A DNA stretch of 4,159 nucleotides from Escherichia coli (GTDB lineage: Bacteria; Pseudomonadota; Gammaproteobacteria; Enterobacterales; Enterobacteriaceae), in NCBI RefSeq assembly GCF_003334255.1, contig NZ_QOWU01000110.1, one strand, 5' to 3'. Positions 1 through 4,159 of the stretch are shown here, one piece after another; within the stretch, counting starts at the first letter, position 1; every line of letters begins with the position of its first letter. Both the position numbers and the translations under genes were made by a program. The notes under the pieces are model-generated. The model did not search any database. It was not told the origin of the DNA and saw nothing but the letters and a program-made list of their open reading frames with translations.

Positions 1-2061
1 GCGGAACAGATGATCCGGCTGTTTTTCTGGTGTGTTGACGGCAGCAAAAAGCGGTGCCTCACGGGTTTTCAGATGAAACTCCATAAGTTCCGGCGCAGGT
101 GATATGTGGCTGTCTGCATCGTGATTTACGGCAACACCATACCCTGCATACCGTAACCCCTTATCGGTCAGTGCACTGATGACCAGCTGGCTGTTATCGG
201 CTGAGGGAACGGCAAACGCGGGATACAGCGTACCATTAAGCCGGACAACACCGCCCAGAGAGTCATCCACGCCCATGACCAGCAAAAGCTGAAGCTGGCG
301 GGTTTCCCGGTCGACAGAACTCATTACCGGCATCAGCGTCGGTAGCAGACGTCCCTGCGTAAAATCCACCTTCCTTGCTGCCAGTGATGGCATGGCTGGC
401 TGGCGGTCTTCTCCAAGACAGAAAGACTCCGGCCATGTCTTCGGCTGGCGGAGATTGCGGGTATATTGCGGCCATGTCTGGCAAACCTGCGTCAGAAGTT
501 GCTCAAAGGTCGCAGAGGAATAAACACGTTGCAGTGGTGGATGTTGACCGATTTCGCTTCGGTCACAGATATAACCACTCCTGTCACGCATTAAATCAAC
601 ACGCTCAAAGATTCTGGTGCGGTATTTCTCCAGCTCGTTCCCCCAGAGCGTGTATTCTCCGTTCCGGTTGTGAAGCAGAAGGTAACAGGTCATTTCCCCG
701 TTACCAGGCATGGGGGCCTCGCCATACCCCGTAACGACTGCGCTCAGTACCCCTGAATCCATAACGGCATTGTCATTTTTCCTGAGCTGTTCCGCTCGTC
801 GCTCCGCGCGACTACGTTCTGTATCCTCCTGCTCCTTCCGGCGCAATTCCTCTTCACGTTTAAGCAACTGGACTCTGAGAGCTGCAAGGCCGGATGCCCC
901 CCACTGCTGCCACTGTTTTTCAAATGCCGTCTGACTCGCGGGAATGTCCTGTTTCTCCACCTTCCGGTAATGCTGTCGCAATTTTTCCATTTGCTGGCTC
1001 AGCGACTGGATTTTTCCCTGTTCGCTACGGTATTCCGGTGCCGCCCATTGCATCAGGGGAATACGGGAAAAACCGGACGAAAACGGCGATGATTTTTTCA
1101 GGCTGGCAGCATGGCTCATCGCTTCCTTTCGTTCGGTGTTCAGCTCTTCCCAGCGTCTGCGCGTCGCCTGCATATCTGCCATCATCGACATGGCATTACT
1201 GGTGAGTTTCCATGCCGCATTACTGTCCTTCGGCAACGCTTCGATGATGTCACGTAGTGTGTACGAAGTTGCGTTGTCAGGAAGCACGATATTCAGAAGG
1301 TCAGCCACACGGCGGGCAGGCTCTGTCAGCCCGCTGTTTCTGAGTTCGGTACGGGAAATCTGTATTTCCAGGTTAAGTCTGTTAATCAGACGATTCTGTT
1401 CGCCGCGTTCTGTTTCGATACCGCGTGTTTCCATCGCACAGGCAGACTTTCCGAGGTGAATACCAGGCGTTTTCTCAAGCCCCTGTCGCTCGTATGAACG
1501 ATGGTCTATCTCTTCCTGATAACCGGCGTTCGCCAGTGCCCTGTTCGCATGGTCAGCCCATGATGCACGCCACGTCTCGGCATGTGTCCGGTCGTTCCAG
1601 TCCCTGACCTTTCCACCGAATCCAGCAGGTCCGACAGCTCTCGTGGTCAGCATGATGTGCGCATGGGGATTTGTTTTATCCATGTGATGGAACGCCACAT
1701 CAGCAATCATGCCCTGACTGACAAAGTTTTCTCTGACAAAGGCGAGAACGGTTTCCCGTGCGGCATCCTGCGGTAGTTCGCGGGGGATGGCGAGTTCAAT
1801 TTCCCGCGCAAGTTGTGAGTTCTTCCGGCGTTCGGCCTTCTCAACGGCATTCCAGAGTTCGGCACGGTTCGTACACCAGGCAGGGGCTGTCGCGGGAGTC
1901 AGAATCACAGCTTCAGCCACACCGCTTTTGCGGGTGTAGTCGTGAGTCAGTCCGGTACGCTCATCAAGCATCAGTGAACCGGAACGATAGGCAGCAGAAG
2001 CAACGGCGCTGTAGCCGCTGTTTCTGGAGATGATTTTCATGCTGAGATGATAAATCGCCAT
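1..2061 (-). CDS. mobA: MOBQ-family conjugative relaxase MobA, N-terminal 687 codons; the ORF runs off the window start and continues at 4082..3984 on the circle
   Basis: Hand translation of the minus strand from ATG at 2061..2059 gives MAIYHLSMKIISRNSGYSAVASAAYRSGSLMLDERTGLTHDYTRKSGV, with Tyr at residue 25 as in RSF1010 MobA. Further in are a histidine-rich motif HHMDKTNPHAHIMLTTR and WADHANRALANAGYQEEIDHRSYERQGLEKTPGIHLG, which closely parallels the RSF1010 MobA segment WADHANRALERAGHDARIDHRTLEAQGIERLPGVHLG (quoted from memory). I checked every in-frame plus-strand triplet from 1 to 2061 and found no TTA, CTA or TCA, so there is no stop on the minus strand. A second in-frame ATG at 2040 is less likely because the MAIYHLS start is the conserved family N-terminus. 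The SD is weak (AAGG/ACGG 5-14 nt upstream). Confidence 0.9.
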   Translation of the reverse strand, partial: MAIYHLSMKIISRNSGYSAVASAAYRSGSLMLDERTGLTHDYTRKSGVAEAVILTPATAPAWCTNRAELWNAVEKAERRKNSQLAREIELAIPRELPQDAARETVLAFVRENFVSQGMIADVAFHHMDKTNPHAHIMLTTRAVGPAGFGGKVRDWNDRTHAETWRASWADHANRALANAGYQEEIDHRSYERQGLEKTPGIHLGKSACAMETRGIETERGEQNRLINRLNLEIQISRTELRNSGLTEPARRVADLLNIVLPDNATSYTLRDIIEALPKDSNAAWKLTSNAMSMMADMQATRRRWEELNTERKEAMSHAASLKKSSPFSSGFSRIPLMQWAAPEYRSEQGKIQSLSQQMEKLRQHYRKVEKQDIPASQTAFEKQWQQWGASGLAALRVQLLKREEELRRKEQEDTERSRAERRAEQLRKNDNAVMDSGVLSAVVTGYGEAPMPGNGEMTCYLLLHNRNGEYTLWGNELEKYRTRIFERVDLMRDRSGYICDRSEIGQHPPLQRVYSSATFEQLLTQVCQTWPQYTRNLRQPKTWPESFCLGEDRQPAMPSLAARKVDFTQGRLLPTLMPVMSSVDRETRQLQLLLVMGVDDSLGGVVRLNGTLYPAFAVPSADNSQLVISALTDKGLRYAGYGVAVNHDADSHISPAPELMEFHLKTREAPLFAAVNTPEKQPDHLFR

Positions 2062-2104
2062 TTCTGCCGTAATGCCTTTTTGTGGTTTTCTTTCAGCCCC
2101 GCAG

Positions 2105-2152
2105 GGCGCACACAATCGAAACGGAGTGGAGATTGTATAAGTGCGCACTTCG
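2105..2152. other. oriT: Putative oriT: imperfect inverted repeat followed by palindromic nic-like core AAGTGCGCACTT
   Basis: Arms gcgcac-acaatc (2106..2117) and gattgtataagtgcgc (2131..2146) form an inverted repeat with a 4-nt bulge. The 12-bp perfect palindrome aagtgcgcactt (2139..2150) contains AAGTGCG, resembling the RSF1010 nic region GGTAAGTGCG/CCCT. It lies between divergent mobA and mobC, as in RSF1010. Confidence 0.6.
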
Positions 2153-2203
2153 TGATTTTCCGTGCATTATGCCAGCTCAGTTTTTAAACTACCAGTGACG
2201 CGC

Positions 2204-2209
2204 TAAAAT
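2204..2209 (+). promoter_or_regulatory. Candidate -10 hexamer (TAAAAT) for mobC; the -35 is not clear
   Basis: TAAAAT sits 30 nt upstream of the mobC ATG. Only weak -35 candidates (TTTTTA, TTAAAC) are present. Divergent mobA/mobC promoters are expected to overlap oriT by analogy with RSF1010. Confidence 0.3.
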
Positions 2210-2239
2210 GCGATTTTTCATCGCGCACGGAGTTACATC

Positions 2240-2494
2240 ATGAGCAGAACACTCGAACAGAAGATTGCTGATGCTGAGGCCAGATTACAGCGCCTGAAGG
2301 CGAAGAGCAGGAGTCTGGACACAGCGCAGAAGGTCATTGTGGGTGCAGCATTGCTGGCAAAGGTCAGAAAGCCGGAGGAGGTGCAGTTGCGTGCCTGGTT
2401 ACTCCAGTTCCTGAAGGCAGAGGTGACACGACAGGCTGATGTGACGCGCATACTGCCGCTGATTAACGAGCTGGAAGCGCTGCCAGGACAGTGA
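2240..2494 (+). CDS. mobC: Mobilization accessory protein MobC (RSF1010-type), 84 aa
   Basis: ATG at 2240 is preceded by GGAG (2229..2232) with a 7-nt spacer. The product MSRTLEQKIADAEARLQRLKAKSRSLDTAQKVIVGAALLAKV... resembles RSF1010 MobC (...RLAKLEEQRARINAEIQRVRAREQ...RKVLVGAMILAKV..., from memory). It is divergent from mobA across the oriT. Confidence 0.8.
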   Translation: MSRTLEQKIADAEARLQRLKAKSRSLDTAQKVIVGAALLAKVRKPEEVQLRAWLLQFLKAEVTRQADVTRILPLINELEALPGQ

Positions 2495-2734
2495 TTGTAT
2501 CGTCCGCTCGCCGCAGTCCCAGCGACCGAGCGTTAGCGAGCGAGTGGGCGAGGAAGCGGAAGTGAATCCGTCGCCTGATTGAGCACATACGCACGGTTTT
2601 TCGGGAGGTGATATGCGCTGAACCCGCATGAATACTGGATTTCCACAGGGTTGGAGGGGGTGTATTCGGAACTTGCAATTCTGCTTTTTTGCAACGCATT
2701 GTTTTTATTGGTTTTTTGTTTTCAGCACTCCAAG

Positions 2735-2743
2735 TTATCCACA
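2735..2743 (+). promoter_or_regulatory. DnaA box, perfect consensus TTATCCACA
   Basis: Exact 9-mer TTATCCACA, located about 100 bp upstream of the iterons and next to the AT-rich repeats. This is the standard layout of iteron-type oriV. Confidence 0.6.
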
Positions 2744-3728: not shown

Positions 3729-3747
3729 AATCGATTTTAAGGCACCT

Positions 3748-3773
3748 AAAACGCTCCCTGCTGCGTTTTTTTT
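3748..3773 (+). terminator. Putative rho-independent terminator of repA
   Basis: Hairpin with arms aaaacgc (3748..3754) and gcgtttt (3763..3769) around an 8-nt loop, running into a T8 tract (3766..3773), 20 nt after the repA stop. The stem has only 3 GC pairs, so it is weak. Confidence 0.4.
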
Positions 3774-3833
3774 GTGTTAGTAGTGCGAAGGTACTATTGA
3801 AGTGAAAAATTGCGTCAAAATCGCTCTAATGCA

Positions 3834-3862
3834 GCGAAAAAAGAACCCCCATTTTTTGGGGG
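3834..3862 (-). terminator. Putative rho-independent terminator of mobA
   Basis: Hairpin with arms ccccca (3846..3851) and tggggg (3857..3862) around a ttttt loop. On the minus strand it is followed by ttcttttttcgc (complement of 3834..3845). It lies about 120 nt downstream of the mobA stop. Confidence 0.45.
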
Positions 3863-3920
3863 CGGAAAAACAAAACTATGCTTGCATTATGTGTGTGCTT
3901 CTTGCATTCATCCCTGTCGA

Positions 3921-3950
3921 TGAACATCGAAGAACATCGACGAACATAAC
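3921..3950. repeat. Three tandem 10-bp repeats (tGAACATCGA, aGAACATCGA, cGAACATaac) in the mobA 3' untranslated region
   Basis: Read directly; the 10-bp period matches one helical turn. Related GAACA/TGTTC motifs recur at 3954..3959 (atgtta) and 3975..3980 (tgttca). Confidence 0.7.
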
Positions 3951-3983
3951 ACGATGTTAAACAAAACAAAATATTGTTCACAT

Positions 3984-4159
3984 TCACTGTGACCAACCGC
4001 GATCATGTCTCCTCTCGGTGGCGTGTGTTCGTGCATCTTCCTCGCGCCGCCATTCGTCCCAGGTACGATTAAAACCCAGCGAGCGGAACAGATGATCCGG
4101 CTGTTTTTCTGGTGTGTTGACGGCAGCAAAAAGCGGTGCCTCACGGGTTTTCAGATGAA
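3984..4159 (-). CDS. mobA: C-terminal end of the same mobA relaxase ORF (last 32 codons plus TGA stop at 3986..3984); bases 4083-4159 duplicate codons already counted in 1..77
   Basis: The frame is continuous across the circular junction (window base 4083 = base 1). Reading the minus strand from 4082 gives SLGFNRTWDEWRREEDARTHATERRHDRGWSQ then stop. Total ORF is 2160 nt, 719 aa. Confidence 0.8.
   Translation of the reverse strand, partial: HLKTREAPLFAAVNTPEKQPDHLFRSLGFNRTWDEWRREEDARTHATERRHDRGWSQ
4083..4159. repeat. Terminal redundancy: exact copy of window bases 1..77, reflecting circular topology rather than a biological repeat
   Basis: Base-for-base identity of 4083..4159 with 1..77, and the mobA reading frame continues across the junction without a stop. 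Confidence 0.95.

Follow-up and report, generated by a model that had tools for sequence, protein, structure and literature searches.

Small mobilizable plasmids of the MOBQ41 group were defined by Garcillan-Barcia et al. 2019, with pIGWZ12, pSE11-6 and pE2022_4 among the named members (PMC6856555). These plasmids are described as cryptic and free of resistance genes, are carried at about 15 copies per chromosome, and showed 100% retention over 80 generations in recA+ and recA- hosts alike; their best mobilization helpers are MPFI plasmids such as R64, as shown with pE2022_4 derivatives (PMC6856555). The term cryptic was also used for pSE11-6-like plasmids by Oshima et al. 2008 (PMC2608844) and Brolund et al. 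2013 (PMC3681856). Here we analysed a stretch of 4159 nucleotides from Escherichia coli (contig NZ_QOWU01000110.1), referred to in its full length as the window, which is very probably a full monomer of an already known theta plasmid, iteron-regulated, cryptic and mobilizable, of the pIGWZ12/pSE11-6 family (MOBQ41 relaxase with a Rep_3 initiator). Our main concern was the two gaps between its annotated features, 2495-2734 and 3729-3983. They contain no protein-coding or Rfam-detectable RNA gene, and the signals that can be assigned to them act in cis, foremost among them a probable primosome assembly site.

Positions 1-77 of the window are repeated exactly at 4083-4159, which resolves it into a 4082-bp circle followed by a 77-bp circular-assembly overlap (4083-4159) lying outside the plasmid unit. 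Megablast against PLSDB gave NZ_LR890408.1 as the best match, 100% identical to the window; pSE11-6 (NC_011411.1) and pE2022_4 (NZ_KT693143.1) are among dozens of records at 99.9% identity, and pIGWZ12 is 94% identical. The search matched 600 PLSDB records, 413 of which cover at least 80% of the query. MOB-suite typing describes the matched records as mobilizable, MOBQ and rep_cluster_1778, and in a sample spread over the ranking the full-length relatives are nearly all 4.02-4.11 kb long. Screening of 5426 complete E. coli genomes found a relative with 80% coverage of the plasmid or more in 421 (7.8%), almost always as a plasmid. Three records are dimer- or trimer-sized and hold several stretches matching the plasmid: NZ_CP147075.1 (8162 bp), NZ_CP035481.1 (8166 bp) and NZ_CP148571.1 (12124 bp). 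These are either true multimers of a plasmid without an Xer site or artefacts of long-read assembly. RefSeq annotation of identical records gives three genes, rep, mobQ (mobA) and mobC. The relaxase, WP_001029343.1, is that listed for pSE11-6 in the published family table and so belongs to MOBQ4; the Rep_3 (PF01051) initiator, with iterons, A+T-rich repeats and a perfect DnaA box upstream, agrees with the origin described for MOBQ41.

For comparative analysis, we took eight non-redundant relatives (86-97% identity), brought them to window coordinates by rotation and aligned them with the window; L numbers designate them where they must be told apart. Column conservation was 0.92 in the first unassigned region, 0.87 in mobC, 0.82 in rep and 0.70 in the iteron region, with mobQ 96% conserved. 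It falls at about 2800 and about 3930, between a mob side that is well conserved and a rep side that is more diverse, in keeping with the 'modular structure' named in the title of Zaleski 2015.

The sequence-only reading had described a cryptic mobilizable plasmid without cargo, addiction, partition or recognisable resolution module, and had left 2495-2734 (240 bp) and 3729-3983 (255 bp) unassigned, coordinates that match the annotated gaps exactly. Scanning the window with Rfam at a permissive threshold gave a best E of 0.69, which is chance level. PADLOC, applied to the three proteins and five spurious open reading frames (ORFs), returned only a weak DpdH cross-hit on the relaxase domain. 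For XerCD sites, pairs of 11-bp arms (XerC and XerD) lying 6-8 bp apart were scored out of 22 and compared with 200 shuffles. The best window score, 16/22, equals the modal best of the shuffles, whilst in two control plasmids, ColE9-J and the ColE1-type pCRP3, the same scan recovered cer-like sites at 21/22 and 22/22 respectively, in line with the earlier statement that no clear XerCD site is present. A CATAA...ATGTTAAA motif in the second region, suggestive by eye, was rejected as an XerCD site on account of its wrong spacing and chance-level score, and dif had no match in the window with up to 3 mismatches. For toxin-antitoxin, partition and anti-phage defence functions we found no conserved extra ORF, no Rfam family, and no PADLOC family besides the relaxase cross-hit. 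Together with the ORF analysis below and the 99.9% identity to published cryptic MOBQ41 plasmids, these results support the absence of any cargo, addiction, partition or resolution module. This is an ordinary plasmid, already known, and the title of the earlier note is the published view of exactly such a plasmid. That note was right that the two gaps hide no genes; its description of them as unassigned needs revision, however, since they contain an assignable pas-like site, DnaA boxes, terminators and a module junction.

The best-conserved non-coding DNA in the family lies at 2504-2562 (+ strand), where the flanks CGCTCGCCGCAG and GCGAGGAAGCG surround a hairpin in an apparent homologue of the ColE1-type ssiA, or n' primosome assembly site (pas). 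The block containing it (block A, 2497-2562) is near-invariant even in L008, whose adjacent 60 nucleotides are about 50% diverged. Sensitive BLAST with 2495-2734 matched at least 5000 PLSDB records, nearly all of them at 2504-2562, and the element is 86-93% identical over 57-59 nucleotides to ColE1-type copies downstream of RNAII/ori (86% over 59 nucleotides for the pBR322/pUC segment). ColE1-type replicons, in which RNAI was located with Rfam, carry the element in RNAII sense approximately 100-150 nucleotides downstream of ori and before rop. This is the ColE1 position of ssiA, the n' primosome assembly site exposed by Pol I extension and recognised by PriA (PMC3167613); in pColZ, a 66-bp 'phiX174 primosome assembly site' has been annotated (PMC6668396). 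ColE9-J has its copy just downstream of rep and the origin, and further copies are present in 1.5-kb plasmids, such that the element is origin-adjacent in four unrelated replicon types (ColE1, ColE2, Rep_3 and the 1.5-kb plasmids).

A pattern scan over one genome per species revealed at least 120 loci, many on Enterobacterales small-plasmid contigs and the rest evident vector contamination. Copies of pUC type lie on tiny contigs of Streptomyces, Cutibacterium, Streptococcus and others, which looks like contamination with cloning vectors. We distinguished 94 variants of the element. All have the flanks CGCTCGCCGCAG and GCGAGGAAGCG in common, and between them they enclose at least ten different complementary stem pairs, including GTTGAC/GTCAAC, CTTGAC/GTCAAG, ACTGAC/GTCAGT, TTTGAA/TTCAAA, CTCAT/ATGAG, CCTGT/ACAGG, CTCAC/GTGAG, CCCA/TGGG and CTGCGCC/GGCGCAG. 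Stems formed by a variant's own partners average 3.65 bp as compared to 2.83 bp for cross-partner stems, and none of 5000 permutations reached the observed mean, a test inflated by the kinship of the 94 variants. Because the interior stem covaries across these variants, selection appears to act on the folded single strand. These observations suggest that 2504-2562 shares ancestry with ColE1 ssiA and is a PriA-dependent primosome assembly site of the phiX174 type.

The ssiA-equivalent sense of the element is the + strand, which is the template of the leftward leading strand and also the predicted transferred strand. This prediction draws on the origin of transfer (oriT), published as the 178-bp interval between divergent mobA and mobC (PMC6856555). 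The interval in the window, at 2062-2239 between mobQ and mobC, has the length and position published for pE2022_4 and is 95% conserved in the family. The oriT core (2106-2149, + strand) consists of the arms ACAATC (2112-2117) and GATTGT (2131-2136) with flanks GCGCAC/GTGCGC, and includes TAAGTGCGCACT at 2138-2149 (+). Of all window sequences this one fits the MOBQ nick consensus TAAGTGCGCCCT (PMC3832669) best, with one mismatch, where chance predicts 0.23 matches. In L006 both partners of a hairpin pair differ in a compensatory manner, T2116A with A2132T. MobC is 36% identical over 66 amino acids (E 5e-7) to the MobC of IncQ1 (L142 1619-1903), with the motif KV(I/L)VGA..LAKV common to both; homology of the MobC-type protein to other relaxase accessory proteins had been reported absent in 2019 (PMC6856555). 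The mobC start lies 91 nucleotides downstream of the nick match, versus 81 nucleotides in IncQ1, whose conventional nick strand has the sense of mobC. This shared sense, the MobC homology and the compensatory hairpin change in L006 together favour the + strand as the one predicted to be nicked at oriT and transferred. With a layout as in IncQ, the pas-like element would enter the recipient approximately 360 nucleotides after the nick. It would most likely prime the complementary strand after transfer, or aid priming or restart beside the origin of vegetative replication (oriV), or both; for ColE1, the pas is thought to prime the transferred strand (PMC4595007).

Several points weigh against this interpretation. 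The oriT core AAGTGCGCACTT is a perfect palindrome, presenting a hairpin followed by GTGCGC on both strands, so that the nicked strand is unreadable from sequence alone and its assignment is taken from the IncQ layout. With respect to the origin, the window element is positioned differently from ColE1 ssiA; in ColE9-J, of the sister group MOBQ42, it has the ssiA-like placement with respect to the ColE2 origin and is inverted relative to the mob module, meaning that a role on the transferred strand cannot be general. Part of the conservation of the first region could stem from recent common ancestry of the entire mob side, given a mobQ that is itself 96% conserved. Finally, the folding energy of the element is unremarkable (z -1.9 on the + strand of the window, median approximately 0 across variants), although such z-scores are uninformative here because the GC-rich flanks pair with shuffled interiors.

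The alternative that survives best is that the element is a functionless passenger acquired from a ColE1- or ColE2-type plasmid, or that it acts other than as a PriA primosome assembly site. In its favour, initiation at Rep_3/DnaA origins loads DnaB without PriA. The same alternative would be consistent with the differing orientation relative to the mob module in MOBQ41 and MOBQ42, with the unexceptional folding energies, and with the strand occupied, since a fork leaving oriV would not have the window element on its lagging-strand template; in ColE1-type plasmids it is found on the strand displaced by leading-strand synthesis, and probably also in ColE9-J if ColE2 replication runs away from rep. 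A passenger, however, would not be expected to show the highest non-coding conservation in the family and to stay near-invariant in L008 beside 60 nucleotides of heavily diverged sequence, nor to recur next to the origin in four unrelated replicon types, and the stem covariation across 94 variants argues for selection on a folded single strand. We therefore regard this alternative as unlikely, and retain a PriA-dependent primosome assembly site as the preferred reading of 2504-2562.

Beyond the pas-like element, the first region leads into oriV. The initiator gene rep (3027-3728, + strand; WP_001281397.1) encodes a Rep_3-family protein of 233 amino acids with matches to Pfam Rep3_N (E 1.3e-35) and Rep3_C (E 9.7e-20). 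The sole perfect DnaA box in the window, TTATCCACA at 2735-2743 (+), is conserved in the family; L006 and L008 carry TTTTCCACA there, which is still within the DnaA consensus. A second, DnaA-box-like site, ATTTCCACA at 2639-2647 (+), lies inside a conserved block (block B, 2621-2655) with one mismatch to TTWTNCACA, and in L008 it is changed to the perfect box TTTTCCACA. Four DnaA boxes have been reported for the pIGWZ12 origin (PMC6856555). Boxes with one mismatch are at chance level in the window (8 found, 7.9 expected), and weight attaches only to the perfect box and to the fact that the 2639 site is conserved. Downstream of these lie the A+T-rich region of oriV (2757-2801), with three family-conserved 13-14-bp repeats, two of which contain GATC, and an array of about four iterons of 21-22 bp resembling GGTAATATGATTTAAGGTAAA (2834-2933). 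All iteron copies shift in concert in L003, L008, L010, L011 and L012 (to GGTAATATGATTTAAGG, GGTGGAGGATTTAAGG, GGAGCTTTTGGGG and others) alongside divergence of Rep, whilst the DnaA box and A+T-rich region are unchanged where iterons and Rep diverge. Rep and iterons thus clearly co-vary, and it is the iterons that have been identified as the incompatibility determinant (PMC6856555). The IHF consensus has a single match, inside rep, which is uninformative.

The second region, 3729-3983, would be a tail-to-tail junction of the rep and mob modules that is permissive for cargo in relatives and empty here. Two convergent, conserved intrinsic terminators were identified by terminator scan. That of rep (3748-3777, + strand) keeps its stem and T-tract in 9/9 relatives with a varying loop, and that of mobQ (3836-3866, - strand), GCCCCCA...TGGGGGT followed by a T-tract with dG -10.8 to -13.2, is likewise kept in 9/9 despite changes in loop and flanks. 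Three tandem 10-bp repeats of the form TCGAnGAACA follow at 3917-3946, found by repeat search. The window and pIGWZ12 have three copies, and the seven other aligned lineages lack 9-10 bp, which corresponds to one copy fewer. Directly 3' of the mobQ stop, a block at 3947-3983 belongs to an interval (3940-3989) with 92-98% column conservation, the most diverged relatives included; the block is confined to the plasmid's own family and holds a one-mismatch DnaA-like box at 3974-3982. Several of the indels that distinguish relatives in this region are not multiples of three.

Inserts carried by relatives identify this interval as the family's cargo position. Plasmid pMCR-4.2_AB243 (L021, 9513 bp) combines the same backbone with mcr-4.2, a RelE/ParE toxin-antitoxin pair and an IS91-family transposase. 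Its 5.4-kb insert (L021 1-5461) interrupts the backbone between 3925 and 3942 in window coordinates. Each side is marked by GAAC, a known target of IS91-family elements (PMC3189936), and the transposase occupies one end. We claim backbone sharing for pMCR-4.2_AB243 only and not for all mcr-4 plasmids, because the original pMCR was described as ColE10/RepB. In pSA20094620.4 (5350 bp), 1.39 kb of extra DNA (L019 4126-5350 plus 1-162) with no ORF longer than 65 amino acids is joined at 3927/3928. ColE9-J, for its part, has its colicin operon and cer-like site in the equivalent interval, from the mobA 3' end to rep.

It could be argued that the repeats and the adjoining block (3917-3983) form a dedicated cis site, either for non-Xer multimer resolution or recombination, or for partition in a centromere-like manner. 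In favour of this are the 10-bp phasing of the repeats, the recurrence of recombinant junctions within 3925-3942 in two relatives independent of each other, the strong conservation of the flanking 37-nucleotide block, and the 100% stability reported without a known stability module. The plasmid, however, encodes neither a recombinase nor a ParA/ParB-type protein, healthy family members have either 2 or 3 repeat copies, and the XerCD score of the block is at chance level. Multimer-sized records exist (the 8162-, 8166- and 12124-bp plasmids above), and an IS91-family transposase with GAAC at both mcr-4.2 junctions suits IS91 targeting better than site-specific recombination. A dedicated cis site is thus improbable, and we favour a permissive junction at which cargo has been received in relatives.

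The sequence-only reading had named a conserved small ORF or small RNA (sRNA) in either region as the observation that would count against it. We looked for both comparatively, and neither was found. Nearly all ORFs of at least 30 amino acids in the two regions are interrupted or frameshifted in at least one relative, and the remainder lack a coding substitution pattern, which bears out the earlier view that no intergenic ORF is convincing. The most persistent frame, a hydrophobic one of 37 codons with a TTG start (2651-2764), is open in all nine sequences, but we rejected it as encoding either a small protein or a toxin. Variable sites fall about equally on the three codon positions (16/14/15), its changes are mostly nonsynonymous, as in two control frames, and it has neither a conserved ATG or GTG start nor usable Shine-Dalgarno spacing.

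An intergenic sRNA (for instance an unstructured one peculiar to this family), small protein or type I toxin-antitoxin pair missed by the tools is marginally less probable still than a dedicated cis site. It would gain from the 37-codon frame being open in 9/9 relatives, from the first region being more conserved (0.92) than rep (0.82) or mobC (0.87), and from RNA of the mobQ 3' flank folding better than its shuffles (z -2.4). The frame nevertheless lacks coding pattern, conserved start and Shine-Dalgarno spacing, as described above; RNA from 2600-2745 folds worse than shuffles (z +1.65); and Rfam, which includes known type I toxin-antitoxin RNAs, returned no match. The second region, with its many indels that are not multiples of three and its copy-variable repeat, is likewise hard to reconcile with a hidden gene, and the pas-like element, DnaA boxes and terminators suffice to explain the conserved blocks.

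The only publicly annotated ORF in either region is a 'hypothetical protein' of 121 amino acids (2828-2463, - strand; UniProt R9R0P4, EcSMS35_C0003) that spans the entire first region. We judged it to be non-coding. Variable columns at codon positions 1/2/3 number 43/42/35 in this frame, as compared to 13/6/34 in mobC, 70/37/173 in rep and 61/60/184 in mobQ, and its substitutions are almost all nonsynonymous: 0 synonymous and 10 nonsynonymous in L010, and 1 and 28, plus two stops, in L008. The frame is shifted or interrupted in 5/8 other family lineages, with a 1-nucleotide frameshift in L009, L010 and L012 and stops in L008, and the start codon is lost in L011 and L012. We rejected it as a gene, as it has no third-position excess and is broken by frameshifts and stops in relatives; the public annotation is probably a propagated mis-annotation. 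DNA conservation beneath the frame is explained by the pas-like element, DnaA boxes and A+T-rich origin region that lie there.

That this ORF is nonetheless a real accessory gene, probably the 'fourth gene' of the published MOBQ41 backbone, is the least probable of the alternatives and can be dismissed: its exact sequence is called on 393 contigs with UniProt and NCBI entries, a long open frame is kept over part of its length in 8/9 family lineages, and a usually unannotated hypothetical protein, its location not stated, has been named as a backbone gene (PMC6856555), but against this stand the even codon-position spread with almost exclusively nonsynonymous change, the frameshifts and lost starts, the overlap with pas-like element, DnaA boxes and A+T-rich origin DNA, the TTG start, and the absence of any match in a PADLOC scan, the one family scan made of this ORF (Pfam and NCBIfam were not run on it).

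The mob module itself comprises mobC, a relaxase accessory protein of 84 amino acids (2240-2494, + strand; WP_000091745.1), and the relaxase gene mobQ/mobA, whose 719 codons run on the - strand from 2061 to 1 (codons 1-687) and, across the circle junction, from 4082 to 3984 (the last 32 codons and the stop). NCBIfam MobQ matches residues 1-193 with 262.6 bits (cut-off 200), and Pfam MobA_MobL covers residues 18-213 only (E 1.1e-70). The earlier statement that the two intergenic stretches were the only unassigned DNA does not survive this result: Pfam accounts for 18-213 of 719 residues, so that no Pfam family is assigned to residues 214-719, which correspond to some 1.5 kb of the gene (window 1-1420 and 3984-4082, - strand). 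A search for nested genes through the synonymous-site profile of mobQ gave an uneven profile, yet codon positions 1 and 2 drop in parallel, which looks like mosaic ancestry in a test that has no power. Near-identical fragments of MobQ have been deposited under Gardnerella vaginalis, Bacteroides ovatus, Lactobacillus crispatus, Bifidobacterium longum and a Myxococcus species, and these look like E. coli plasmid contamination of the assemblies.

For the C-terminal half of MobQ, a sequence search against PDB found no match among solved structures, and residues ~214-440 matched nothing. The last ~290 residues, by contrast, are 42-45% identical to proteins named DNA primase. With tblastn, the match falls inside sogL of about 2000 conjugative plasmids, and residues ~445-705 are 44-45% identical to R64 Sog ~946-1231, that is, to the C-terminal ~285 residues of the 1255-amino-acid Sog. 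The predicted structure of this domain, a small beta-barrel for which no informative solved homologue was found, matches the C-termini of SogS, SogL and TraC in AFDB. The published remark that the relaxase has 'low homology to SogL' (PMC6856555) therefore understates a clear homology at domain level to the SogL C-terminus. SogL and SogS are both exported into recipient cells (PMC6112013). A Sog/TraC-type C-terminal domain would adapt the relaxase to IncI-type (MPFI) helpers.

All of the plasmid's content would, on this analysis, serve its own replication or transfer, and its persistence would, following the literature, come from copy number (~15 per chromosome) and efficient mobilization rather than from an addiction, partition or Xer module. 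We tentatively posit, as an idea with a modest chance of being right, that the success of such cargo-free plasmids (~8% of complete E. coli genomes) is based on a two-part 'establishment kit' copying functions of the IncI helper, together with a GAAC landing pad. The first part may be the relaxase, which ends in the same C-terminal domain as the helper's Sog primase, itself known to be exported to recipient cells; the other part may be the ColE1-type primosome assembly site on the transferred strand, ~360 nucleotides behind the nick. If this is true, the incoming single strand would be escorted and made duplex by host PriA without a plasmid primase. The GAAC-rich repeat array downstream of mobQ may in turn be a recurrent landing pad for one-ended transposition by IS91-family elements, in which case the 'empty' backbone would have a latent capacity to carry mcr-4.2 and similar genes. 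As to why cargo-free plasmids are so prevalent, concrete and testable candidates are offered by the pas-like element and by the Sog-like domain of the relaxase.

The negative result is nonetheless the correct one: this is a textbook small cryptic plasmid, with nothing to suggest a new accessory or defence system. What our analysis adds is descriptive, namely that the intergenic DNA consists of cis-acting signals, that a widely propagated ORF call is spurious, and that the empty junction is the point at which relatives carry cargo. We found no mention of the pas-like element, of the non-coding case for the hypothetical protein or of a cargo-junction role for the 10-bp repeats in published accounts of the family, Zaleski 2015 not being among those covered. 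Two consequences are practical: a non-coding 'hypothetical protein' on hundreds of public contigs overlies origin signals, and a very common backbone is the empty form of plasmids able to carry mcr-4.2 and a toxin-antitoxin pair at a defined junction.

Compared with its closest described relatives, pSE11-6, pE2022_4 and pIGWZ12, the window has the same genes, 178-bp oriT, iteron origin and size; nothing substantive differs, and the window is a member of that family. The MOBQ42 plasmid ColE9-J is next in likeness, with the 5' half of mobA, oriT and mobC ~85% identical at the DNA level and the same pas-like element next to the origin. ColE9-J differs in having a ColE2 Rep and origin, a colicin operon, a cer-like Xer site (21/22), and the pas-like element inverted relative to mob.

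At a greater distance, the IncQ1 plasmids (RSF1010/R1162) share the mobA-oriT-mobC layout, the nick consensus on the mobC-sense strand, a MobQ-family relaxase and a homologous MobC, whereas the window has no nested mobB, its relaxase has a Sog/TraC-type C-terminal domain in place of a fused RepB primase, and its replicon is unrelated. The element at 2504-2562 resembles ssiA of ColE1/pBR322 in its identity (86% over 59 nucleotides), conserved flanks and hairpin interior; it departs from ssiA in that the adjoining origin is of the DnaA/Rep_3 iteron type and not of the RNAII/Pol I type, and in lying upstream of that origin and on the predicted transferred strand. With SogL/SogS of IncI1, finally, the relaxase has in common the C-terminal domain present in both Sog proteins, which in Sog is fused to a primase/LPD7 protein and here to a relaxase.

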